Of a DNA stretch of 49,371 bases, positions 6,784 through 18,257 are shown in pieces (positions within the stretch are counted from its first letter, which is position 1; every line of letters starts with the position of its first letter). The position numbers were made by a program, and so were the translations under genes. Below the pieces are notes generated by a model. That model worked only from the letters and a program-made list of their open reading frames with translations. It searched no databases and was not told the DNA's origin. This DNA comes from a virus. Lineage: Duplodnaviria; Heunggongvirae; Uroviricota; Caudoviricetes. The DNA is taken from positions 1-49,371 of IMG/VR virus record IMGVR_UViG_3300039008_000325; one strand, written 5' to 3'.

Positions 6784-6978
6784 TTAAAACGGTATTTCAT
6801 CATCTTCATGTATGTAACGAGTTCTATATAATATTACATTATATTTACCTGGTTGAACTTCAATATCATCTGGTTTATCATACTCTTCAGTATAGTGAGT
6901 AGTTTCACTAATATGAACTGGTATGTTAGGATCACATTTTTCTAATTGTTTAATCAATTCTTTAACTGTAATAGTCAT
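6784..6978 (-). CDS. hypothetical protein
   Basis: MTITVKELIKQLEKCDPNIPV, a common small phage protein start. Confidence 0.75.
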   Translation of the reverse strand: MTITVKELIKQLEKCDPNIPVHISETTHYTEEYDKPDDIEVQPGKYNVILYRTRYIHEDDEIPF

Positions 6979-7133
6979 TATAATTCTCCTATATTAAAAT
7001 CTATTGTAATTGTTTGAACTTGCGGTTTAACTGTTACAGGTAATGTTAATGATCCATCTTGATTAATATATGGATCATTAACTTCATAATTACCTTGCTC
7101 AATAGCTAGTACTATTAAATCAAGATCACTCAT
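6978..7133 (-). CDS. small hypothetical protein (51 aa, not in ORF track)
   Basis: MSDLDLIVLAIEQGNYEVNDPYINQDGSLTLPVTVKPQVQTITIDFNIGEL; TAATG overlaps at both ends. Confidence 0.7.
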   Translation of the reverse strand: MSDLDLIVLAIEQGNYEVNDPYINQDGSLTLPVTVKPQVQTITIDFNIGEL

Positions 7134-8002
7134 TACGTTGCCCATTGATTTCCCCAAATTTCTAAATGTAATCTATCTGAGAATTTATAACCTTTCTTTA
7201 AACAAATATCAGCAATTAACTGTTTTGTTTTAACGAAATCTTCTCCATATGTTCCACCCATTGGCATTAAGTAAACCATATCAGGTGTAATATGTAATCC
7301 ATCATCAGCTTCACAATAATCAATAAATTCTTCTACTTCAGCTACATCTTCTTCATTTGAAACTACAAATTTAAAATAACCATTGAAACAACCTTCTATA
7401 ATACCATTGGTAAATTGTTCAATAATTTCTTGTCTCCAAGCTAATTTTCTTGAATTACCTGAACAAGCCATTTTAGGACTTATTGAATAAGTGATAAATA
7501 AATCACATTCAGAACTAATCTCAGGTTTAACAGTGCCATTTGTTTCAAAAGTTACGTTATTTAAATAATGTTTTTCATTTAAAATATTAATAACTTCTTC
7601 CCAAAATTTTTGATGTAATAGTGGTTCACCACCAGTAATTACTAAATGGATATTCTCCATACTATCACCAGGAATGGTATCTATGACGTCTTTAACTAAT
7701 TCCTCAGGAGATTTTTGCGGTGAAAGTTCAGCAAATTCAGGATAAATAGAAGGATAACTATCACAACCTGTTTTTACTAGTGGTAAATCTTTTATATCCT
7801 TTACAGGATTTTTCTTAAATTCTTCAATAATATCTTTAACTTCTGGATTTGTTTTATCTACTTCAAAACAACCTTTACAAAGTCCAAAACCTGGACATCT
7901 TAACGTGCAACCAAATGATCTTACAAATACAGATGGTGTTCCAGTAAATTCACCTTCACCTTGTAAACTGTAAAAACATTCTGATATTCTAACTTTATTC
8001 AT
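7133..8002 (-). CDS. queE: 7-carboxy-7-deazaguanine synthase (radical SAM)
   Basis: ISECFYSLQGEG..G.PSVFVR..GC...C, GCDS, LVITGGEPLL, TFETNG, SISPK, RLH..IWG. Confidence 0.93.
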   Translation of the reverse strand: MNKVRISECFYSLQGEGEFTGTPSVFVRSFGCTLRCPGFGLCKGCFEVDKTNPEVKDIIEEFKKNPVKDIKDLPLVKTGCDSYPSIYPEFAELSPQKSPEELVKDVIDTIPGDSMENIHLVITGGEPLLHQKFWEEVINILNEKHYLNNVTFETNGTVKPEISSECDLFITYSISPKMACSGNSRKLAWRQEIIEQFTNGIIEGCFNGYFKFVVSNEEDVAEVEEFIDYCEADDGLHITPDMVYLMPMGGTYGEDFVKTKQLIADICLKKGYKFSDRLHLEIWGNQWAT

Positions 8003-8061: not shown

Positions 8062-8394
8062 TTATGACCAATAATCATTTATCTTTTCAGTTATTAAATT
8101 TTTAACTTTCATTAATTTATCAGCTTGTTCATCATTAAATAATTTCATATTTTCTACTTGTGAATAAATAGTGTTAATAGTATCACTTGTTAATTTTTCA
8201 ACAGCTACCATTAAATCATTGAAATTAAAATCAATGTTAGAATCTTCTGAAGACACTGTATGAGCACTATTGTATATATCATTTAATTCTTGATTAAGAT
8301 TATTAAAATTTATTATTTCCGAAACTGTTAATTTATTTTCTTTATTTGACATTCTATTTATCCCATGGAAACATAAACCATTCATCTGTTTCAC
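8062..8394 (-). CDS. hypothetical protein
   Basis: 110-aa ORF in track; true start may be internal (MSNKENK). Confidence 0.65.
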   Translation of the reverse strand: MKQMNGLCFHGINRMSNKENKLTVSEIINFNNLNQELNDIYNSAHTVSSEDSNIDFNFNDLMVAVEKLTSDTINTIYSQVENMKLFNDEQADKLMKVKNLITEKINDYWS

Positions 8395-8782
8395 TTCTTT
8401 TCATTAATTTACACATCAAACGTAAATCTAAAACGTTTGTAATTACTTCAGAATTACATATTAATGCAGCCCAATCAAATGTATAATTATGTAAAAATTT
8501 ATTTACTTCTCTATAAGTTTTACCACTATCAATTATATCTTCTACAATTAAACAACGTTTATCATTACTCACTTGTTCTTTAAAATGGTTATCATCATGA
8601 GATTTAAAATCTCTAAACGATATATTTAAAATTTTTAATGGTATTCCTAATTTATAACTTATCATAGTAGCTGGTATAACTCCACCTCTACTAATACCAA
8701 CAATATAATCATATTGTTTTCTATCATTCTTTATTGAATCACAAATATAATTAACATGTTTATCTAATTCTTTCCAATCCAT
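8354..8782 (-). CDS. type I phosphoribosyltransferase (xanthine/guanine PRT-like)
   Basis: IVGISRGGVIPA and PRPP-binding loop LIVEDIIDSGKT. Confidence 0.9.
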   Translation of the reverse strand: MDWKELDKHVNYICDSIKNDRKQYDYIVGISRGGVIPATMISYKLGIPLKILNISFRDFKSHDDNHFKEQVSNDKRCLIVEDIIDSGKTYREVNKFLHNYTFDWAALICNSEVITNVLDLRLMCKLMKRSETDEWFMFPWDK

Positions 8783-8910: not shown

Positions 8911-9420
8911 CTATTCTTGCAATGCTGAAGAATAAATTACATCTTCATCATCCCACTTCAATAATTCTAAATCTTCAACAGTAGCTTCTGCATAACCTGT
9001 TGCTGTTTCATGAACCCTAACACATACACATTGTAATGTTTCATCTTCACCATTTTCAAATTTTGTATTCTCAATAATATCTCTGATATTTTTTAAGAAA
9101 AATATTGAATATGCTTCAGCTGATGGACTAAACGGTAATTCAATCCATCTTTCATTTTCTTCTTTCATAAATTTTCTAACACTATCCTTATCTTTATTCC
9201 AGAAATGAATAGAATGATCAAACTTATCAAGAAATGAGTTAACATTACCTTTCATAAGACCAAAGTCATACACCATAAAACCATTATCTAGTTTCTTTTT
9301 AGATTCTAGAAATACTTCTACAATATATGAGTGTCCATGAAATGATCTTGAACATCTAGTACTTGAGCAACCTCTTACAATATGAGCTGCTTCAAATTTA
9401 TATTGCTTTCTTATCTTCAT
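8911..9420 (-). CDS. queD: 6-carboxytetrahydropterin synthase
   Basis: KFEAAHIV..C...C..FHGHSY, MVYDFG, FDH, PSAE, VHETATGYA. Confidence 0.93.
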   Translation of the reverse strand: MKIRKQYKFEAAHIVRGCSSTRCSRSFHGHSYIVEVFLESKKKLDNGFMVYDFGLMKGNVNSFLDKFDHSIHFWNKDKDSVRKFMKEENERWIELPFSPSAEAYSIFFLKNIRDIIENTKFENGEDETLQCVCVRVHETATGYAEATVEDLELLKWDDEDVIYSSALQE

Positions 9421-9465: not shown

Positions 9466-10443
9466 TTATTTAAGATTTCTTCCAGCACTTAATACTGATG
9501 TTGCAACAATACCATCACTATGAATAGATTCTTGATTATTAACAACTATTACATAATCATTAATAGATTTATCTAAACTTTCGTTTAATTGTTCAGCAAT
9601 TCTTCTTGAAATATCTTCAACAAATGCTGGTCCACCACCTGTTTCTACAAAACAACCTTCATCATCAAAGTAACCACCCATATAAGATCTTTCAGTTACA
9701 TATTTTTCATCAGGTCTTTTTAAGATTGCAAATGTTGGTGATGAAGCACCACCTTGAGCTATTTCAACAAGATCTTCAATCCACATTGTATCATTAGAAT
9801 CAGTTAATTCAACTGTAATATCAATCATAGATTTTTGATTGTGTGCACCAAAACCAGATCTAATTATTTTATCATATAGTGATTTCTCATTTTCATCACC
9901 AATTCTTAAATTATTTAATCTATATGCTTCAGCTTCAGATATATTATTTTCTAATAAACTCATTTCTTTAGAACAAGGACATAAACTCATTTCTACTGTT
10001 TTAACAGTTAAATAATGTTTAACAATACCTTTTAACATTTTAGTTTCTAATACTACTTGAACAGGTTCATAAGAAGGTATTTTTGTCATTGGTGAATAAC
10101 CTTTGATTAAATAATCAAATTCAGTCTTAACATAAATATCATCTACACCATGTGCTTTATTAAGTTCTTCAGTAAATCTAGTAAGATCTCTAAAACCATC
10201 ACCCATTGATTCTTCATCAACAACTCTATGTAAAGTTCTTGCGATTCTAGACATATTAATACCTTTTGTATTAGCATCTAGAGAACAATATGAACTAATT
10301 GTAGCTGTAACAGTTTGAACATTCTCACCATTTCTTTCTTGTATTTTTAAAGGAAGTTTATTTCCTCTAACACCTACTTTTTCAATAGCTATTTTTGGAA
10401 AACCTTTTGTTTCCTTTTGCATATCTGGTAATTCTCTACTCAT
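9466..10443 (-). CDS. folE2: GTP cyclohydrolase IB (FolE2/MptA type)
   Basis: IEKVGV, KGINMSR, SLCPCSKE, AHNQKS, EKYVTE, FVEDISR, NQESIH. Confidence 0.93.
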   Translation of the reverse strand: MSRELPDMQKETKGFPKIAIEKVGVRGNKLPLKIQERNGENVQTVTATISSYCSLDANTKGINMSRIARTLHRVVDEESMGDGFRDLTRFTEELNKAHGVDDIYVKTEFDYLIKGYSPMTKIPSYEPVQVVLETKMLKGIVKHYLTVKTVEMSLCPCSKEMSLLENNISEAEAYRLNNLRIGDENEKSLYDKIIRSGFGAHNQKSMIDITVELTDSNDTMWIEDLVEIAQGGASSPTFAILKRPDEKYVTERSYMGGYFDDEGCFVETGGGPAFVEDISRRIAEQLNESLDKSINDYVIVVNNQESIHSDGIVATSVLSAGRNLK

Positions 10444-10487
10444 TTATTTTCCCTTTTATTAATATTAATTAATGTTTCATTGATACT

Positions 10488-10515
10488 ATTATATAGAATA
10501 ATGACACTAATTCAA
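10488..10515 (-). promoter_or_regulatory. promoter TTGAAT-N16-TATAAT upstream of folE2
   Basis: Hexamers read directly. Confidence 0.6.
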
Positions 10516-10517
10516 TA

Positions 10518-10694
10518 TTACTTTATTTCTTTCATTTCTCTTAATTTACCAAGAACATGAGTACAACGATCGATACAGATATCACAAACAGCACCTTGAG
10601 GAGCATCACCAATTAAATGTTCTACTTCTGATTTCTTTCTTCCACAAATTAAGCAAAATGCTTCTACTTCTGGTAATTCTAATATTTTACCCAT
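10518..10694 (-). CDS. stand-alone ClpX-type C4 zinc-binding domain protein (58 aa, not in ORF track)
   Basis: MGKILELPEVEAFCLICGRKKSEVEHLIGDAPQGAVCDICIDRCTHVLGKLREMKEIK matches the ClpX ZBD pattern CxxCG...EV..LI......ICxxCI..C; SD AAGGGG. Confidence 0.8.
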   Translation of the reverse strand: MGKILELPEVEAFCLICGRKKSEVEHLIGDAPQGAVCDICIDRCTHVLGKLREMKEIK

Positions 10695-10706
10695 GTTCTT
10701 TCCCCT

Positions 10707-11630
10707 TTATTGTCTCATAGTTTTTTCAGATACTGTAAATACATCTGTAAAAGAAGCTTTACCTAGTAATGATAAGTCATTACATCTAACTGGATTAATA
10801 TCTAATCCACCTCTTCTAGTGTATAAACAAGCTACTAATAATCTATCTGGTTTTAATAAATCAAATAATCTTTTGTAAATACATTCACAAATTTCTTCAT
10901 GGAAATGATTTTCCTTTCTCATAGAAACAATATATTTCATTAATGATTCTGGCGTTACAGTTTTATCACCATCAATAATAATATACACATCACCCCAATC
11001 AGGTTGATTAGTAACTCTACAATTTGATCTTAAAGCATTTGATGTAATTTGTTTAATATCAAAATTATCAACTACTTCTAAAATATTAGGATCTTCATTA
11101 TATTCATCAAAATCTATTGAAGTTACATCTATAATATTTTCAAGTTTAATAAACTCTATACCATCAAAGTTATTAATAACATTATTATCAAAATGTAAGT
11201 GAACTCTAACTGAACCACCAACTGTTTCTTTTAAATCATTTGTAATTCTTGTAATTACTTTACCTTTACATTCATCAACAGTTTTACCTATTTTTTCCAT
11301 ATTAAATGAATTTAAGTAAAGTTTCATAGATTTAGATTCTACAATATTTTTTGAATCAGATGGATAAGACCATTTCAATACACCTGTAATTGGAAATCCA
11401 TTTTCTAATAAACAAGAAAATTCATATGCATTCCAAGTATCAATACCATAAAAAGGTAAATTATCTTCTTCAATTCCATATTGAGTTCTATTTAATTCTC
11501 TAGGAACACCAACTAATAATGTTGAATCAATATGATCTGGTGTTTCATATGGTTTAACAACTGAACCATCTCCTGCACGACCAAGGTGTACACTTGCAAT
11601 ACTTTCAATTTCTTTTTTAATATTTGTCAT
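10707..11630 (-). CDS. queF: 7-cyano-7-deazaguanine reductase (bimodular, E. coli-type QueF)
   Basis: VPRELNR, DTWNAYEFS, IVESKSMKLYLNSFN, RSNCRVTNQPDWG (catalytic Cys/Asp), NHFHEEICE, YTRRGGLDINP. Confidence 0.93.
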   Translation of the reverse strand: MTNIKKEIESIASVHLGRAGDGSVVKPYETPDHIDSTLLVGVPRELNRTQYGIEEDNLPFYGIDTWNAYEFSCLLENGFPITGVLKWSYPSDSKNIVESKSMKLYLNSFNMEKIGKTVDECKGKVITRITNDLKETVGGSVRVHLHFDNNVINNFDGIEFIKLENIIDVTSIDFDEYNEDPNILEVVDNFDIKQITSNALRSNCRVTNQPDWGDVYIIIDGDKTVTPESLMKYIVSMRKENHFHEEICECIYKRLFDLLKPDRLLVACLYTRRGGLDINPVRCNDLSLLGKASFTDVFTVSEKTMRQ

Positions 11631-12192
11631 TATATCTCATTCCTTTTATATAACCTTTTTGTTCAAATTCTGATAAGTTATCAGAATTAATTCTTTTTCT
11701 TTCACCTTGTTTATTTACCACCCATATCTTATTTTTAGTAGCTTTAGATGAAATTTTTCTTCGTTCTTCTTTAGATAAACCATGAAAACCTATTTTATTA
11801 TCACGACACATTAAACCTGCAGCTCTACGATCATAATCTTCTGAGAAAATTCCCAATTTATTATTTTTTGTTGTTCGACCACCTTTTCTACCATTTTCAG
11901 CTTTTTCTTGTGAAGTAAATTTATGAAAACCTTTCTTTTCTCTATAACATTTCTCACCAGATTTTCGTTTTAATTCTAGATATTCATCTACAGGGATTTC
12001 TAATCGTGTTGATATTATTGAAGCTGCAGCATAATCTCCTTGTGACTTATGAATTTTATAATGTTCTTCAATAGTTACAAGTTGTAAATTATCGGGTTCA
12101 TTATTATCACGATTACCATCAATATGATGTATTTCCATACCTTCTGGTATTTCACGATTATTATATTTTTCCCATATTTGTCTGTAGTGCAT
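11617..12192 (-). mobile_element. free-standing HNH homing endonuclease gene
   Basis: EIHHIDGNRDNNEPDNLQLVTIEEHYKIH; C-terminal repeated GFH/GIF basic DNA-binding motifs; own T4-type late promoter. Confidence 0.85.
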
Positions 12193-12225
12193 AATTATAT
12201 TCCTTTCTATTATAAGTTATATAAT

Positions 12226-12233
12226 TATTTATA
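12226..12233 (-). promoter_or_regulatory. T4-type late promoter TATAAATA
   Basis: Exact match about 35 nt upstream of the HNH start. Confidence 0.75.
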
Positions 12234-12258
12234 ATTTACCTACGTGACCCATCTTTAC

Positions 12259-12789
12259 CTAAGTGTGATTAACTATCTCCCTTATTTGTTTAATTCTATC
12301 TTCAACTGAACCTGTAATATAATGAACTTTAATATTAAAATTTTCAATATAACTATCAAATAGTTTTTCTATATCTTTTTGAAAGTCTTTATTAGTACTT
12401 CTAACATTATCATCAACAATTTCAAATTCTGGTTTCAAATAAAACATATAATCATATAATTTATATGTATTTAAAAATATATCAAATGCTGTTTTAAAAA
12501 CATCTACACTGATTTGATTTTTCATATATAAATAGTGTGTGTAAACAATACCATCTAATGAACATCTATCTAATACACATTTTTCATGTTTAGTATTATC
12601 TAAATGAGCATCCATAATTCTTTGTTGTGTTTCATCACCACCAGCTTCATTTATATCAAAACCTTGTCTTTGTAATTTTCTAGTAATTTCTTCTTCGAAA
12701 ACAAAATCATTAAATTTTTCCATAGTTTTTAATTCATTTAATAATGTTGTTTTACCAGTAGAATGTGTACCTGTGAAAGTTAATTTCAT
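12259..12789 (-). CDS. P-loop nucleotide kinase-like protein (AAA_28 / thymidylate-kinase-like)
   Basis: FTGTHSTGKTT, LDRCSLD, YDYMFYL, DDNVR; probable start MKLTF at 12789. Confidence 0.8.
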   Translation of the reverse strand: MKLTFTGTHSTGKTTLLNELKTMEKFNDFVFEEEITRKLQRQGFDINEAGGDETQQRIMDAHLDNTKHEKCVLDRCSLDGIVYTHYLYMKNQISVDVFKTAFDIFLNTYKLYDYMFYLKPEFEIVDDNVRSTNKDFQKDIEKLFDSYIENFNIKVHYITGSVEDRIKQIREIVNHT

Positions 12790-12791
12790 TC

Positions 12792-13241
12792 CTACCCCCA
12801 TAATGTTTGTTTTTTAGTTTCAATATCAAAAATATAATCATAAGTATTAAACTCATTTAACTCTTTTTTATATTCAAACTTATCTTTAAATAATTTATAC
12901 CCGTCAGAATTTTCTTCAGATACAAAATAGAAATTAACATTATTAAATTTAGCTTCTTGATAACAAAGCTCTAATAATTCTTTACCTAAACCTTTACCTC
13001 TATGTGAATCACAAACATGTAAATAATATACTTTCAATTTATCTTTATATTTCTCATCAATAGTGTAAGCTACAAAACCTATTATTTTACCATCTTTTTC
13101 AATAATTGTTGGTTCAAACTTTTCCCAATAACCTCTATCTTCCCATAATGTTAAAAATGTTAACAAAATTGGATCAGTTATATGCTCATTTACATAAGCA
13201 TATAACTTTTCTTTATCTGAAGTTTTTCTAAAACATATCAT
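12792..13241 (-). CDS. GNAT-family N-acetyltransferase
   Basis: IIGFVAY, YLHVCDSHRGKGLGKELL (acetyl-CoA motif A), NSDGYKLF. Confidence 0.88.
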   Translation of the reverse strand: MICFRKTSDKEKLYAYVNEHITDPILLTFLTLWEDRGYWEKFEPTIIEKDGKIIGFVAYTIDEKYKDKLKVYYLHVCDSHRGKGLGKELLELCYQEAKFNNVNFYFVSEENSDGYKLFKDKFEYKKELNEFNTYDYIFDIETKKQTLWG

Positions 13242-14062
13242 TATTTTAACCCTTCTCTAAATTGAGTCGTGTTATAATTTATAAGCTCTTTTTGTTCTTC
13301 AGTCAATTTAAGATTAATTAAATCACAAACCTTAATAGTTGGTTTTGAATCAATACCATTAATTCCATCATATTTAATATCTTTAATACCTGCAATTACT
13401 GGATTAGAAGTGTCTAATGACTCAACATTACTGTTTTCATATAACTCTTTATTTTCAGTAAACTCTTTATAAAAAGAACAACCTAATAAATGATGTGGTT
13501 TATCAAAATTCCAAACTCCATCATTTTGTAATTTTTTAATTAATCTAGGTCTACCTCTATAGAATTGAGCTAATTTATCTTCATTATAAGATTCAGCTTC
13601 TTTACCAATCTCAGAATCATCTTCTTCAAAACATTTTGTATTATAAGATATAGCTATTTTATCAGCATGTTTTGACATAAATTCATAACATCTCTTAAAA
13701 TCTTCATATGTTTCACCTTGAACAACACCAATTCTAATACCTTCTAAATCACTATAATTTTCAACAAAGTTTTTCCAATTATTAATAGTTGCATCAGCAT
13801 CATCTAATACATCTGGAATAATATATTGAGTTGGTTTAGTTTCTCTAACAGCTTGAGCAAATAATTCAGCATCAAAAGCTTCTTCTAATTCAAATATAGA
13901 ATTATCTAATAATACATTTCTACCAGCTTTTACAGCATCAATATAATATTGTTTATATTCAGGAACTTCATCATAAAGGTGAACTAAACCATAATCATAA
14001 TCATTAAATTGTTTAGAATCTTCTAATAGTTCTAGTGGACATTCGTGTGATATTTGTATCAT
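13241..14062 (-). CDS. TGT-fold transglycosylase-like protein (DpdA-like)
   Basis: LLDNSIFE (cf. TGT DSGGF), IIPDV, IGVVQG, KPHHLLG, SLDTS; no TGT zinc-site CxCxxC seen; lies in a que cluster. Confidence 0.75.
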   Translation of the reverse strand: MIQISHECPLELLEDSKQFNDYDYGLVHLYDEVPEYKQYYIDAVKAGRNVLLDNSIFELEEAFDAELFAQAVRETKPTQYIIPDVLDDADATINNWKNFVENYSDLEGIRIGVVQGETYEDFKRCYEFMSKHADKIAISYNTKCFEEDDSEIGKEAESYNEDKLAQFYRGRPRLIKKLQNDGVWNFDKPHHLLGCSFYKEFTENKELYENSNVESLDTSNPVIAGIKDIKYDGINGIDSKPTIKVCDLINLKLTEEQKELINYNTTQFREGLK

Positions 14063-14071
14063 ATTTCTCTC

Positions 14072-14545
14072 CTACTTTTTATCAGAACTTCCAAATCCGT
14101 TTTCACCTCTAACTGAACAATCTTCATATTGTTTCCAATCAGCTTCATTCATATCAAACATTTGAATTACTGGTATTTTATGTGTTTTAACTTGCACACA
14201 TCCTTTACCTTTTTCAATAGTAACATCTTTATCACCAAGATTAAATACTTTGACACCTAAAGGTCCAGTATAACCGTGATCAATAATACCAGGATGCACT
14301 CTTAGATTTTTACCAATACCCATTCCAGATCTTGTAGCAAATTCTAAATACCAACCTTCTGGAATAGCAATTTTTAAACCTACCTCAACCATAGCTGAAC
14401 CACCAGCTGGTATTACAGTATCTTCGATTGCTTTAAGATCGAAACATGCACTTGTTCCTTCATAAGCTACTTCGATATCATAAGCTCTTTCATCAGTTTT
14501 AAACACACCTAATTCAAGGTCAATTTTTTGTACAAATTCTTCCAT
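14072..14545 (-). CDS. dut: trimeric dUTPase
   Basis: SACFDL, ATRSGMG, GIIDHGYTG, RGENGFGSS. Confidence 0.92.
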   Translation of the reverse strand: MEEFVQKIDLELGVFKTDERAYDIEVAYEGTSACFDLKAIEDTVIPAGGSAMVEVGLKIAIPEGWYLEFATRSGMGIGKNLRVHPGIIDHGYTGPLGVKVFNLGDKDVTIEKGKGCVQVKTHKIPVIQMFDMNEADWKQYEDCSVRGENGFGSSDKK

Positions 14546-14557
14546 AAACTCTCTCCT

Positions 14558-15040
14558 CTATCTTATGTTTTGAAATTTATTATTTAAGCCATTATATAGC
14601 ATAAAGTTTTGTTCTTTTAATATTCTATCAAATATTTCTTCATCACCAGGAATCAATTTATCTGCTGGAATATCATATTTATCTTGCCAGAATGGAGTAC
14701 ATTCTTCATTTGGTTCTAATAATTCACCATCGAATTCATTAGTGTAATGAAAATCAACTACCCAATTCTTAGCATTTTCGTTTTCATAATATAACTTACC
14801 AATATCCTGTAATCCAGGAGGTATTATTATACCTGTTTCTTCTCTAACTTCTCTCATACTTGTGTGATAGATATCTTCATCTTCTGGGTCCATTTTACCA
14901 CCTGGACAATTCCAAGTATCTTTAAACTTACCTCTATGGTGCTCAATAAATAGAAATTCATTATCTCTTTCTACAACACAAACAGTTGCTCTGATGAATT
15001 CTTTACCATCAAATACTTCTACTTCATACTCTTTTTGCAT
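14558..15040 (-). CDS. Nudix hydrolase (MutT-like)
   Basis: Nudix box PGGKMDPEDEDIYHTSMREVREETGI. Confidence 0.9.
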   Translation of the reverse strand: MQKEYEVEVFDGKEFIRATVCVVERDNEFLFIEHHRGKFKDTWNCPGGKMDPEDEDIYHTSMREVREETGIIIPPGLQDIGKLYYENENAKNWVVDFHYTNEFDGELLEPNEECTPFWQDKYDIPADKLIPGDEEIFDRILKEQNFMLYNGLNNKFQNIR

Positions 15041-15050
15041 AATTCTCCCC

Positions 15051-15167
15051 TTAAGCTCTATTATGTTCTATTTGAAATCTATAGTGATCTACATTTGAAT
15101 AGTAGTCAACAGCACCATAAATAGTAAATAGTGTTATTATCTGAACTATTATCCAAATAGTTTTCAT
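15051..15167 (-). CDS. small membrane protein (38 aa, not in track)
   Basis: MKTIWIIVQIITLFTIYGAVDYYSNVDHYRFQIEHNRA. Confidence 0.5.
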   Translation of the reverse strand: MKTIWIIVQIITLFTIYGAVDYYSNVDHYRFQIEHNRA

Positions 15168-15183
15168 TACCAATCTTTTCATA

Positions 15184-15792
15184 TTATAATCCAAAATACG
15201 GGTTATTTTTAGTTTCAAATGTATTAATTACAATCATATCACCAAAACCTTCTTCACCAAATATATTAAATAATACGTTTGCATCTAATTTAACACTATC
15301 TTTGAATTTAGTAGATGAAATATTATGATTACCATCTACAAATAATGGTGATAACATATTTCTAAATAAATATAATTTATAGTTATCATACATTATACAA
15401 GCAAATGATCCATCAAAGTTATTAACATTTTCAAAAGATTCTAACATAGAATTATGTATATGATCTGTATCCCAATCTTCTTTAACCGTTTCCATATATT
15501 CATCTTTTAATATACCATTATGCCATAATAAAGATCTACCTATTTGATTAGGATGTACTTTTGAACTACCTGATGTTGGAGCTTGAACATGCCCAACATA
15601 GAAGTATTCTTCATTTTCTCTTAATGAAGGTATTTTATTTTCATTAAATAAACCATCACCTTCAAGTCTAACTTTTGGTGTTAGCTCTTTATCAAATATA
15701 GTAATGGAATATTTACTATTACCTCTATATTGATTTAATTTAGCTAATTCTATAAATTTATCTTTATTTCGACTTGCAAATATTCCACACAT
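15184..15792 (-). CDS. class II (Ntn) glutamine amidotransferase domain protein
   Basis: N-terminal MCGIF, YRG, GHVQAPT, VHP, LWHNGIL, WDT, DGSFA, LFRN. Confidence 0.88.
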   Translation of the reverse strand: MCGIFASRNKDKFIELAKLNQYRGNSKYSITIFDKELTPKVRLEGDGLFNENKIPSLRENEEYFYVGHVQAPTSGSSKVHPNQIGRSLLWHNGILKDEYMETVKEDWDTDHIHNSMLESFENVNNFDGSFACIMYDNYKLYLFRNMLSPLFVDGNHNISSTKFKDSVKLDANVLFNIFGEEGFGDMIVINTFETKNNPYFGL

Positions 15793-15796
15793 AATT

Positions 15797-15964
15797 CTAA
15801 TCCTTCATTGTTAATAATATAGCAAACCATGCCATTAATAATACTGCAATAGCAATTACCCAACCAATCCAAAGTGGACATAATACCCAAATCCATGACC
15901 AGTTAATTACTTTAGTTAATTTCAATACTATAAAAGCTACTGCTAATAATGATGAAAATTTCAT
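15797..15964 (-). CDS. small two-helix membrane protein (55 aa, not in track)
   Basis: LAVAFIVLKLTKVINWSWIWVLCPLWI, a common phage membrane-protein pattern; strong SD. Confidence 0.75.
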   Translation of the reverse strand: MKFSSLLAVAFIVLKLTKVINWSWIWVLCPLWIGWVIAIAVLLMAWFAILLTMKD

Positions 15965-15974
15965 TTCCCCTCTC

Positions 15975-16349
15975 CTATAATTTATTTGTTGTTACTAGTA
16001 TATCACCTTTTAATTGTGATTTCAGTGTTTGTTTTCTAGATATTTCTTCTTCATAGCAACTTATATAATATTTTACATGATTTAAAGACCATTCATTCCA
16101 ACCACCTAAATCATAAAGTGTTGTAATTGATTTAATTTTCTTTTCAAGTTTATCACGTTTAACTTCTTCTTCAGCAATATCTTTATTAATATCTTCTATT
16201 TCACTATCAAGTGATTCAATTTTCATTTTGATATAGGAATCAAATGCTTCTACAGCACTTGCTCTATCAAAACTTGTAACTTCAAATAATAATGTAGATG
16301 AATCTTCTACATAAAAATAAAATGTGTCTCCACTTTTAATATGTTTCAT
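15975..16349 (-). CDS. hypothetical coiled-coil protein
   Basis: 124-aa ORF with AGGAGAGG SD. Confidence 0.75.
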   Translation of the reverse strand: MKHIKSGDTFYFYVEDSSTLLFEVTSFDRASAVEAFDSYIKMKIESLDSEIEDINKDIAEEEVKRDKLEKKIKSITTLYDLGGWNEWSLNHVKYYISCYEEEISRKQTLKSQLKGDILVTTNKL

Positions 16350-16372
16350 AATGACCTCTCCTTAATAAAAAA

Positions 16373-16513
16373 TGTACCTGTGAGTCAACTTGTTTCCGAT
16401 GTTTCTCCTCGCCATTGACTCACTTATCTTAGCATATATGCTCTTCATCTAAGATCCTTTAACTTACTACTTGGGTGAGCAGACTCCCTCAAAGTCCTTC
16501 CATGCAGGGTACA
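16373..16513 (-). ncRNA. candidate structured non-coding RNA between queC and the next gene
   Basis: GC-enriched intergenic stretch; closing stem UGUAC-C-CUG/CAGGUACA plus GGACUU/GAGUCU, AUCUUAG/CUAAGAU and GUGAGUCAA/UUGACUCAC stems; family not recognised. Confidence 0.55.
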
Positions 16514-16530
16514 ACTACATAAAGCTTTTA

Positions 16531-17262
16531 TTAGACTTTCCAGTCTATCTCTATACTATATTTTGCAGTATCTTTTGTTTTTGCTTTCATAAAATTCATT
16601 ATTCTTTCAGCACAACTAGGACACTTTCCACAACTTTCACCTTCTTCATTAGGATTATAACAAGTTAATGTCAAACTATAATCTACTCCTAATTCATTTC
16701 CAATTTCAATTTCATCAGCTTTAGACATATGTTTAAAAGGTGCTTCTAAAGTAATATCATGCATTCTATTTAATCCAGAAACTACATTCATATTAGTTAA
16801 GAAGTCTTCGGTACAATCCCAATATCCATATGAATCATGAACTTGTAATCCTGTAAATACATGAGCACAATTATTTGCTTGAGCAAATGAGAATGCAATA
16901 CTATTTAATATCATATTTCTATATGGTACTTCTGTAACCGGTTGTGGATCACCTAACACTTCTTCAATAGTTGGCATTTCAACATCTGTACCAGATATAT
17001 TTGCACAAACATTTTTAACTACATCTCCTAAGAAACTAATATCAATTAATCTGTGTTGAATACCTAGCTTATCACAAGTCTTCTTTGCTAATTCCAATTC
17101 TATTGATTGTTTTTGCCCATAAAAATATGATAATGCAATTACATTGTCTTTACCATATTTGTTTGCTAATAAATAAGTTAAAATTGTGCTATCTAAACCA
17201 CCAGATAAAACACTTACTACTTTTTTACCTTCTGCTAATACAGGTAATGATACTTTTTCCAT
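16531..17262 (-). CDS. queC: 7-cyano-7-deazaguanine synthase
   Basis: SVLSGGLDS, YGQK..IEL, VPYRNMI, YWDC, TLTCY, CGKCPSCAER; probable start MEKVS at 17262. Confidence 0.95.
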   Translation of the reverse strand: MEKVSLPVLAEGKKVVSVLSGGLDSTILTYLLANKYGKDNVIALSYFYGQKQSIELELAKKTCDKLGIQHRLIDISFLGDVVKNVCANISGTDVEMPTIEEVLGDPQPVTEVPYRNMILNSIAFSFAQANNCAHVFTGLQVHDSYGYWDCTEDFLTNMNVVSGLNRMHDITLEAPFKHMSKADEIEIGNELGVDYSLTLTCYNPNEEGESCGKCPSCAERIMNFMKAKTKDTAKYSIEIDWKV

Positions 17263-17287
17263 ATCCCTCTCCTCTTTATTTTTCACT

Positions 17288-17315
17288 ATTATAATAAAAA
17301 ATAATGTAATTTCAA
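17288..17315 (-). promoter_or_regulatory. promoter TTGAAA-N16-TATAAT upstream of queC
   Basis: Hexamers read directly. Confidence 0.6.
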
Positions 17316-17322
17316 CATTACA

Positions 17323-17511
17323 TTATTTTGATAATTGAATTATTGCTTCAAGATCAGCAATCTTTTCATCTTTAGTTGCTACCAATTGTTTAAGTCCAAT
17401 TTGAGCTTCTAAAGCATTGATTTGACCATCTTTGAACATATTTTCTTCTTTAAGTTTTTCGTTTTCTTCTTTTAGTTGTTTATTTTCTTCTCTTAAATTA
17501 TTATAAAACAT
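17323..17511 (-). CDS. small coiled-coil protein
   Basis: LREENKQLKEENEKLKEEN heptads. Confidence 0.7.
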   Translation of the reverse strand: MFYNNLREENKQLKEENEKLKEENMFKDGQINALEAQIGLKQLVATKDEKIADLEAIIQLSK

Positions 17512-17519
17512 TTTACCTC

Positions 17520-18257
17520 CTATAATACAAATACTTCCATTTTAAAACCTGTTTCTTCCTTCTTATAACCTAATGGATTACATATAACACCGGTATCTTT
17601 CATCATATATTTAATATGATTATGCATATGTCCATGTATCCAAAATTTGTGTTTAGTAATAATATCAGTATCTATTTCTTCAAAGAAAAACTTATTTAGA
17701 TTTTTACCAATATATTTTAAATCACTAGATTTTTCAGAAGGTGCATGATGAGTAACTATTAATGTTTCTTTATCATTAAACTCTTTATTAAATGCTTTTA
17801 TCTTATTTAAAGATTCTTTATGATACACGTTACCTAATTGAACATTCTCTATATAATTAAAATCATTTAATGCTTTAACGTGCATATTATTACTATTATA
17901 TGCTTCAGTCCATAAAGTGCTTCCAAATATATAAATTGACCTATCACCTTTTGTAAACTCATAAATATCATCATCTAATACAATAAAGTTTTCTTTAGAA
18001 TTGATAAATCTATCATCAATATCTCTATTATAGAACTCATGATTACCATAAACAAATATTGTTTTAAATCTTATATCTGATAATGTATCAATAAAATATT
18101 GTAAATTATCATCATCAAATGACTTAACACCAGATACAAGATCTCCAGCTATGAATAAAATATCTATTTCATCAGCTACCTTTTCAATTTCTCGATATGC
18201 TGAATCATAATTACCATGTATATCAGATATAACACTAAACTTGATTTGTTCCTTCAT
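17520..18257 (-). CDS. calcineurin-like metallophosphoesterase
   Basis: SDIHGN, AGDL, GNHEFY, THHAP, WIHGHMH, NPLGY. Confidence 0.9.
   Translation of the reverse strand: MKEQIKFSVISDIHGNYDSAYREIEKVADEIDILFIAGDLVSGVKSFDDDNLQYFIDTLSDIRFKTIFVYGNHEFYNRDIDDRFINSKENFIVLDDDIYEFTKGDRSIYIFGSTLWTEAYNSNNMHVKALNDFNYIENVQLGNVYHKESLNKIKAFNKEFNDKETLIVTHHAPSEKSSDLKYIGKNLNKFFFEEIDTDIITKHKFWIHGHMHNHIKYMMKDTGVICNPLGYKKEETGFKMEVFVL

Follow-up and report, generated by a model that had tools for sequence, protein, structure and literature searches.

So far, DNA is known to contain eight natural derivatives of 7-deazaguanine, among them the N-methyl and N-formyl forms of 7-aminomethyl-7-deazaguanine (preQ1). In the DNA of Flavobacterium phage immuto, guanine is fully replaced by fdPreQ1, the formylated form of the preQ1 deoxynucleoside (dPreQ1), and DpdN has been proposed as the preQ1/dPreQ1 formyltransferase (Cui et al., 2023; PMC10516641). 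The same study describes the methyltransferase DpdM, which acts on dPreQ1 in Cellulophaga phage phiSM and Vibrio phage VH7D, as well as the 2'-deoxy-7-amido-7-deazaguanosine (dADG) system of Campylobacter phage CP220, in which the replacement of guanine is complete and the final base is 7-amido-7-deazaguanine; for both immuto and CP220, it proposes that a transglycosylase of the DpdA3 subfamily, whose phages show complete guanine replacement, inserts the base (Cui et al., 2023; PMC10516641). A second kind of precedent comes from phage PaMx11, whose gp48, a GNAT encoded beside a P-loop kinase, N-acetylates 5-aminomethyl-2'-deoxyuridine in DNA to give 5-acetylaminomethyl-2'-deoxyuridine (5-AcNmdU; Lee et al., 2021; PMC8989533). 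Here we analyse a stretch of 49,371 nucleotides (hereafter the window), the first 49 kb of the 137.7-kb IMG/VR virus record IMGVR_UViG_3300039008_000325 (Caudoviricetes; estimated completeness 77%), in which a GNAT gene lies between the genes for a DpdA3-family protein and an AAA_28 P-loop kinase, inside a cluster for the synthesis of 7-cyano-7-deazaguanine (preQ0) and preQ1. On balance, we consider it probable that this is a DpdA3-type guanine-replacing system in which the tailoring enzyme has been exchanged for a non-orthologous one, and that the GNAT N-acetylates preQ1, so that the virion DNA is predicted to contain 7-(acetylamino)methyl-7-deazaguanine. The locus is best read as a system of an already known kind, in which the GNAT in the tailoring slot and the predicted base are what is new, the latter being a natural extension of methyl- and formyl-preQ1.

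The likeness to immuto extends over most of the module. Both phages encode, in matching order, DpdA3 (44% identity over 99% of the length by tblastn; phmmer 4e-62), an AAA_28 kinase and QueF, together with the preQ0/preQ1 pathway and a phosphoribosyltransferase-like protein, and both have an acyltransferase gene between those of DpdA3 and the kinase, the immuto order being DpdA3, a small open reading frame (ORF), DpdN (YP_010114479, PurN-like), AAA_28 kinase and QueF. The acyltransferases themselves differ, since that of the window is a GNAT (PF00583) whereas that of immuto is a PurN-like formyltransferase (PF00551); hence, an acyl-CoA rather than a folate donor and, as predicted, an acetyl rather than a formyl product would be expected. 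Unlike in immuto, an HNH endonuclease gene breaks the kinase-QueF junction of the window, and genes for a NUDIX hydrolase, a dUTPase-family protein and an Ntn-amidotransferase-like protein lie in the same operon-like block. The closest QueF-bearing relative examined, locus L006, has the order DpdA3, DpdN, kinase, QueF, with identities to the window proteins of 53% for DpdA3, 56% for the kinase and 45% for QueF, and the window differs from it in two ways only, namely the GNAT in the place of DpdN and the HNH gene inserted before QueF. No match to PF00551 (Formyl_trans_N) was found in the 137.7-kb record, which encodes exactly one GNAT, the one in the slot. By position, this GNAT is the analogue of DpdN and not a member of the DpdN family.

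Homology identifies the 149-aa product of the slot gene as an acyl-CoA-dependent N-acyltransferase. It scores 44.1 bits against PF00583 (curated cut-off 20.7), and its AlphaFold2 (AF2) model, with a predicted local distance difference test (pLDDT) of 94, has the canonical fold; the top PDB matches are all GNATs, at template modelling (TM) scores of ~0.7. The acyl-CoA pyrophosphate loop (motif A) reads R80-G-K-G-L-G85 and is conserved with minor variation in the family. Nine aromatic and acidic residues (F29, W33, Y38, W39, Y72, Y73, E130, F131 and D135) are invariant and family-specific and would map, on the model, to the elements that usually form the acceptor site. Taken together, the confident model, the fold, the R-x-x-G-x-G loop and these invariant residues make the enzyme look competent. 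Its family is tiny: when 1.84 billion cluster representatives were searched in full with HMMER, 36 reached E<=1e-3 and 10 reached E<=1e-10. Among these members, P0130 and P0137 have other domain architectures, and the contigs of P0130 and P0128 are not long enough for a context to be read. A word-indexed search for close relatives returned only the GNAT itself, tblastn against 50,697 phage records gave no match, pattern scans of IMG/VR with the GNAT alignments found none, and megablast of the 8.4-kb cluster against phages was likewise negative. The base composition of the gene is the same as that of its neighbours.

We inspected all reachable genomic contexts of the GNAT family, and nine lineages, the window and eight others, were seen to keep a GNAT in a module of this kind (Table 1). 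Every close family member with a readable context sits in the module, in one of two gene orders or, in one lineage, as a fusion with the AAA_28 kinase (P0131, 332 aa). The survey of GNAT, dpdA and queF co-occurrence that the original prediction had called for thus gave QueF in eight of the nine lineages, the ninth contig (L009) ending before it could show, and DpdN in none; in keeping with that prediction, the GNAT clade proved to be conserved beside dpdA-like genes, in DpdA3/kinase/QueF modules. Seven of the module GNATs group together as a single, moderately supported clade (81/82), and they diverge in step with DpdA3, the kinase and QueF (36-51% against 36-48%). The DpdA3 proteins that accompany them fall at two to three separate positions of the DpdA3 tree, beside DpdN-type and QueF-less relatives. 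The overlap between the DpdA3 stop and the GNAT start is conserved as well, being TAATG in the window, TTGA in L017 and GTGA in L099. Since the gene arrangement recurs across independent metagenomic lineages, it goes beyond chance. Two of the lineages have a QueF-adjacent ORF with no significant Pfam match and no counterpart in the window (L099:8042-8926, 295 aa; L014:8914-9840, 309 aa); the latter was considered as a DpdA and rejected, for it has no recognisable similarity to one.

How often the tailoring slot is filled was examined in the best 80 of 581 IMG/VR DpdA3 loci. In about 62 of these, the genes for DpdA3, the kinase and QueF follow one another without any intervening gene, while DpdN occupies the slot in nine and a divergent GNAT in one (L097). 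This last GNAT was missed by phmmer with the window GNAT, so that more slot occupants may hide among the loci scored as free of an acyltransferase. The QueF-less modules examined (CP220, L003 and L004) have no acyltransferase. The AAA_28 kinase, for which no sequence match was found in the PDB, adjoins DpdA3 in CP220, in immuto and in about 70 of the best 80 loci. The picture is one of a constant core, DpdA3 plus the AAA_28 kinase, often accompanied by a dNTP pyrophosphatase; in the branch with QueF, the amine is predicted to be left free, formylated by DpdN or acylated by the GNAT.

The 273-aa protein encoded upstream of the GNAT is assigned by homology to the subfamily that Cui et al. (2023) named DpdA3 (immuto, CP220 and phiST lineage). 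It has 2366 relatives; its identity to CP220 gp056 is 42% (tblastn; phmmer 2e-51). A profile search against PDB sequences gave chance matches only, and therefore we examined the fold by structure prediction. The AF2 model, built with 20 relatives (pLDDT 88.8; predicted TM score, pTM, 0.88), is a (beta/alpha)8 barrel, and its top 50 Foldseek matches in the PDB are all tRNA-guanine transglycosylases (TGT; E down to 1.2e-8, probability 1.0, TM ~0.6), which agrees with the TGT fold originally assigned to this gene. The motifs LLDNS, VVQG, KPHHLLGC and DTSNP are family-invariant, and D53, Q115, G194 and D217 are invariant in 20 members; in an hhalign alignment with E. coli TGT that is of low confidence (3% probability), VVQG pairs with IIQG, KPHHLLG with KPRYLMG and D217 with the nucleophile Asp of FDCVMP. 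The protein has ~100 residues fewer than E. coli TGT (375 aa) and is strongly acidic (isoelectric point 4.58, net charge -23). By homology, it is predicted to exchange guanine for the deazapurine. In L009, DpdA3 is split into ORFs of 113 and 137 aa (L009:3474-4295), possibly by a frameshift, an assembly error or gene decay. Five IMG/VR loci (L033, L073, L081, L085 and L087) have DpdA3 with neither kinase nor QueF within ~6 kb; there it is flanked by opposite-strand genes, including a conserved ~685-aa ORF, and the genomic setting is a different one.

The substrate of the proposed acetylation would be supplied by the same cluster. To judge from homology, FolE2, QueD, QueE and QueC would lead to preQ0, and QueF would reduce it to preQ1, with its primary aminomethyl group. 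QueF is 37% identical to the E. coli enzyme and, as the original prediction stated, keeps the catalytic Cys (Cys204, aligned with Cys190); its motif is also kept (ESKSMKLYLNSF; consensus E(S/L)K(S/A)hK(L/Y)(Y/F/W), here ESKSMKLY). The GNAT would then transfer an acetyl group from acetyl-CoA to the preQ1 aminomethyl group, doing the job that DpdN does in immuto-type systems. We infer the aminomethyl nitrogen as acceptor because the GNAT occupies the DpdN slot and is linked to QueF and because this nitrogen is the only good nucleophile, and acetyl-CoA as donor because it is typical of small GNATs. The virion DNA would consequently carry 2'-deoxy-7-(acetylamino)methyl-7-deazaguanosine in the place of dG, a nucleoside with a predicted [M+H]+ of ~338.15, compared with 296.1 for dPreQ1 and 324.1 for fdPreQ1. 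Being neutral and bulky, the group in the major groove would confer protection against restriction, as is the case in related phages.

The original prediction, that the GNAT caps the preQ1 amine, agreed with our results at each point that could be checked computationally: the DpdA3 subfamily, the DpdN slot, the lack of a formyltransferase and the conservation of the GNAT clade. It had further named the acetylated base as one not known to have been described, and in the literature searched we found no mention of it under the names tried, nor any report joining deazaguanine, preQ1, phage and GNAT. The word "acetyl" never appears in Cui et al. (2023; PMC10516641), which is the only paper in which we found DpdA3 and fdPreQ1; a search for DpdN likewise listed no other paper on 7-deazaguanines, and the literature pairing DpdA with "acetyltransferase" consists of unrelated papers.

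The described systems other than immuto resemble the window in part. CP220 shares DpdA3 directly followed by the AAA_28 kinase, but it has neither QueF nor an acyltransferase, and therefore no amine to cap. DpdM likewise tailors the preQ1 aminomethyl nitrogen of phage DNA, yet it has a methyltransferase fold, belongs with a different DpdA subfamily and gives low modification levels. PaMx11 gp48, similarly to the window GNAT, is a small phage enzyme of this fold that adjoins a P-loop kinase and is concerned with a primary aminomethyl group in the major groove; however, the base is a pyrimidine modified at the 5-position of dU and not a 7-deazapurine, gp48 acts on DNA, and the kinase at its side is a 5-hydroxymethyl-2'-deoxyuridine (5-hmdU) DNA kinase whose only relation to AAA_28 is the P-loop. 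The two GNATs align with 92% probability (hhalign) over the 80-column GNAT core only and at 18 bits in phmmer. Since their homology is confined to this core, gp48 offers a chemical precedent and not a case of membership. A distant member of the window GNAT family, P0140 (L103:8001-9242), is fused to a 5-hmdU DNA kinase and lies in a thymidine hypermodification cluster with PF18724 AADT (amino-acid:DNA transferase), PF18723 HMUDK_hel, a ThyA-like protein and a PolA with a UDG domain; P0140 is a fused counterpart of the PaMx11 gp48-gp49 pair. Scans of viral contigs with P0147 and P0150, from the clade on the P0140 side, found no contexts.

Several observations weigh against an acetylated preQ1 base. 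As the record is 77% complete by estimate, a DpdN gene may lie elsewhere in the genome. About 62 of 72 IMG/VR DpdA3-kinase-QueF loci are without an acyltransferase, and therefore capping is optional and an uncapped amine is apparently tolerated. The activity of DpdA3 has never been reconstituted, attempts in E. coli having failed (PMC10516641), and in L014 no DpdA3 was found within 7 kb. In the close clade, Phe replaces the Tyr that often serves GNATs as general acid, and the GNAT fold leaves both acyl donor and acceptor unfixed. This last point admits the transfer of another acyl group (e.g., propionyl, malonyl, succinyl or aminoacyl), giving a different N-acyl-preQ1; the evidence from the module context would apply to it equally, and the fold matches are to generic GNATs at ~15% identity, which leaves the donor specificity unconstrained. 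Nonetheless, we consider it unlikely, given that small single-domain GNATs of the R-x-x-G-x-G type mostly use acetyl-CoA, that gp48, the one characterised phage DNA-base GNAT, transfers acetyl, and that no gene for acyl-CoA formation was seen in the cluster. The acceptor atom is likewise not identified by anything in the sequence, and exocyclic nucleobase amines can be acetylated by GNAT enzymes, as in the formation of N4-acetylcytidine (ac4C) by NAT10 (cited in PMC8989533), so that the exocyclic N2 of the deazapurine or the amino group of an intermediate might be the target in place of the 7-aminomethyl group. Such a target seems highly improbable, however, as the GNAT keeps company with QueF and did not appear in those DpdA3 modules examined that lack QueF, as its slot is that of DpdN, which yields a product with N-formyl on the aminomethyl group, and as a primary alkyl amine is, on chemical reasoning, by far the most nucleophilic site.

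Two further readings would leave the acetyl group out of the virion DNA. The group could be transient, masking the amine for the kinase and the polymerase or keeping preQ1 from host TGT and riboswitches, and be removed later, with dPreQ1 in the virion; the kinase-GNAT fusion would fit such an acetylation of a small molecule beside its phosphorylation. We regard this as distinctly unlikely, since four common deacetylase or amidohydrolase families, PF01546, PF02585, PF00850 and PF01979, have no match in the record, since the formyl group persists on the DNA in the analogous immuto system, and since most QueF-type modules do without an acyltransferase. Alternatively, the GNAT might have nothing to do with the DNA base and be a protein or small-molecule acetyltransferase (e.g., RimI-like, or used in host takeover) in a region of nucleotide metabolism. 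Its top sequence and structure matches do include N-terminal and ribosomal-protein acetyltransferases, and one relative, P0127 (37% identity, in L100), belongs to a T4-like phage in which no deazaguanine gene was seen within 7 kb, which adds to the points against our reading and means that the wider GNAT family is not exclusive to the module. However, those PDB matches are at the level of GNATs in general, and the retention of the gene in nine lineages and two gene orders, the kinase fusion, the overlap with DpdA3 in the window and two other lineages and the association with QueF and never with DpdN all make an unrelated role very unlikely. Hence, N-acetylation of preQ1 remains the reading that we favour.

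At which stage this acetylation would take place is a separate matter: it might act on the free base, on the (deoxy)nucleoside or nucleotide ahead of its polymerisation, or on preQ1 within DNA, and we hold the nucleotide level and the DNA level to be about equally likely. The DNA-level route is favoured by the gp48 precedent and by the view of Cui et al. (PMC10516641) that DpdA insertion is post-replicative. The nucleotide-level route is favoured by the constant kinase, the pyrophosphatases and the phosphoribosyltransferase, by the short and very acidic DpdA3, by the restriction of 100% replacement to DpdA3 phages, by the ADG nucleoside that has been reported from cells infected with CP220 (cited in PMC10516641), and by a chain of natural fusions. 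These join DpdA3 to PF00551 (P0031, P0044, P0051, P0075 and others; 434-461 aa, many clusters), the AAA_28 kinase to the GNAT, as in P0131, and the AAA_28 kinase to a dUTPase (L003:6931-7920, 329 aa), and they are a hint that nucleotides, and not finished DNA, are what DpdA3 systems act on. In such a scheme, the pyrophosphatase would supply the substrate, DpdA3 would swap the base, the GNAT would cap the amine, the AAA_28 kinase would rephosphorylate the product and the polymerase would incorporate it. The boldest form of the proposal, that the phage of the window and at least eight uncultured lineages replace most or all of their guanine with the never-reported 7-(acetylamino)methyl-7-deazaguanine by means of a dedicated GNAT subfamily, with the whole module at work before replication and acting on (deoxy)nucleosides or nucleotides in the free state, is one that we regard as doubtful.

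The dNTP pyrophosphatase encoded upstream of DpdA3 belongs to the dUTPase family, and its gene is adjacent to the kinase gene in L004, fused to it in L003 and present in L014 and L099. The idea that it is an obviously retargeted dGTPase was rejected: the protein matches canonical trimeric dUTPases (1e-18) and keeps their five motifs (by eye), and therefore its specificity cannot be called from the sequence.

Table 1. Genes of the deazaguanine cluster in the window, assigned by homology, and gene orders around related GNATs in the other lineages.
Locus	Feature or gene order	Coordinates	Strand	Supporting matches
Window	QueE-like radical SAM enzyme (7-carboxy-7-deazaguanine synthase)	7133..8002	-	weak Pfam Fer4_12, Radical_SAM; homology to QueE-position genes of immuto, L003, L004, L009, L012
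Window	Phosphoribosyltransferase-like protein	8354..8782	-	PF00156 2e-15
Window	QueD (6-carboxytetrahydropterin synthase)	8911..9420	-	PF01242 6e-21; phrog_2389
Window	FolE2 (GTP cyclohydrolase IB)	9466..10443	-	PF02649 7.5e-61
Window	QueF, bimodular NADPH-dependent preQ0 reductase	10707..11630	-	PF14819 5.9e-30, PF14489 8.5e-21
Window	HNH homing-type endonuclease, between kinase and QueF	11617..12192	-	PF13392 3e-14
Window	AAA_28 (NadR ribosylnicotinamide-kinase-like) P-loop kinase	12259..12789	-	PF13521 3e-18; phrog_2107 "thymidylate kinase" 1e-30
Window	GNAT N-acyltransferase, 149 aa	12792..13241	-	PF00583 2.9e-11
Window	DpdA3-family 7-deazaguanine transglycosylase, 273 aa, minimal TGT barrel	13241..14062	-	phrog_19058 3e-52, no Pfam match
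Window	Trimeric dUTPase-family dNTP pyrophosphatase, 9 nt upstream of DpdA3	14072..14545	-	PF00692 4e-17; PDB dUTPases 1e-18
Window	NUDIX hydrolase, 12 nt upstream of dUTPase gene	14558..15040	-	PF00293 1.8e-13
Window	Ntn (Cys2) glutamine-amidotransferase-like protein near QueC	15184..15792	-	phrog_12378 1e-46; weak GlmS-type amidotransferase match
Window	QueC (preQ0 synthase)	16531..17286	-	PF06508 6.6e-56
L009 (P0122, 55% identity)	GatL, QueC, ..., QueE, DpdA3 (split, two ORFs), GNAT, kinase, contig end			
L010 (P0123)	DpdA3, kinase, GNAT, QueF			
L011/L012	DpdA3, kinase, GNAT, QueF			
L013	GNAT, kinase, QueF			
L017 (P0124)	DpdA3, GNAT, kinase, QueF directly downstream			
L099 (P0125)	DpdA3, GNAT, kinase, 295-aa ORF, QueF; within full pathway cluster			
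L014/L015 (P0131)	AAA_28 kinase-GNAT fusion polypeptide, then directly QueF			
L097 (IMG/VR)	183-aa very divergent GNAT between DpdA3 and kinase	6804-7355		PF00583 22.9 bits; family hidden Markov model 3e-5

The window has a base composition of ~26% G+C and carries nearly all its genes on the minus strand, and the replication genes of the record are of the large T4-like kind (UvsX, DnaB, primase, gp46/47-like SbcCD and GroEL). The arrangement of the cluster is as originally described: the stop codon TAA of the TGT-fold gene overlaps the GNAT ATG, the GNAT stop TAG (12794-12792) is separated by the two nucleotides GA from the kinase ATG at 12789, and the trio lies within a full FolE2/QueD/QueE/QueC/QueF set, all members of which were found on the same strand. 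We take the ATG at 12789 as the kinase start because in the alignment the homologues also begin there, with MKI or MKL; an in-frame ATG upstream of it, at 12801, is probably unused. The HNH stop and the QueF start overlap by 14 nt. As kinase and QueF are directly adjacent or overlapping in nearly all relatives, the HNH gene gives the impression of a homing-endonuclease gene that has inserted into the module. In a scan of 10400-17600, promoter and terminator sites did not rise above those of shuffled sequence, and within the cluster the coding strand yielded no terminator, a result that is compatible with co-transcription but proves nothing.

Some of the neighbouring genes recur in the relatives. 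The phosphoribosyltransferase-like gene has homologues in the immuto cluster, in L014 and in the DpdN-type loci L021, L024 and L026. A homologue of the Ntn-amidotransferase-like gene is directly upstream of QueC in L009 (L009:313-975); the protein may feed ammonia to QueC, or may mark a G+-like branch beside QueF. The QueE-like radical SAM protein of L099 (L099:2206-3576) has 456 aa and a LAGLIDADG_3 match, which suggests an intein or a homing-endonuclease insertion.

If our reading is true, the N-acetyl form would be a new natural DNA base, the GNATs described here would be a new enzyme family for the preQ1 amine, and one tailoring slot would be filled by unrelated enzymes that draw on the folate or the acetyl-CoA pool. 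Such an exchange of enzymes in the slot parallels the combinatorial tailoring seen in thymidine hypermodification. Moreover, the natural fusions bear on whether DpdA3 systems act before or after replication, and bases of this kind matter for resistance to restriction and CRISPR, for artefacts in virome sequencing and for nuclease-resistant DNA tools.

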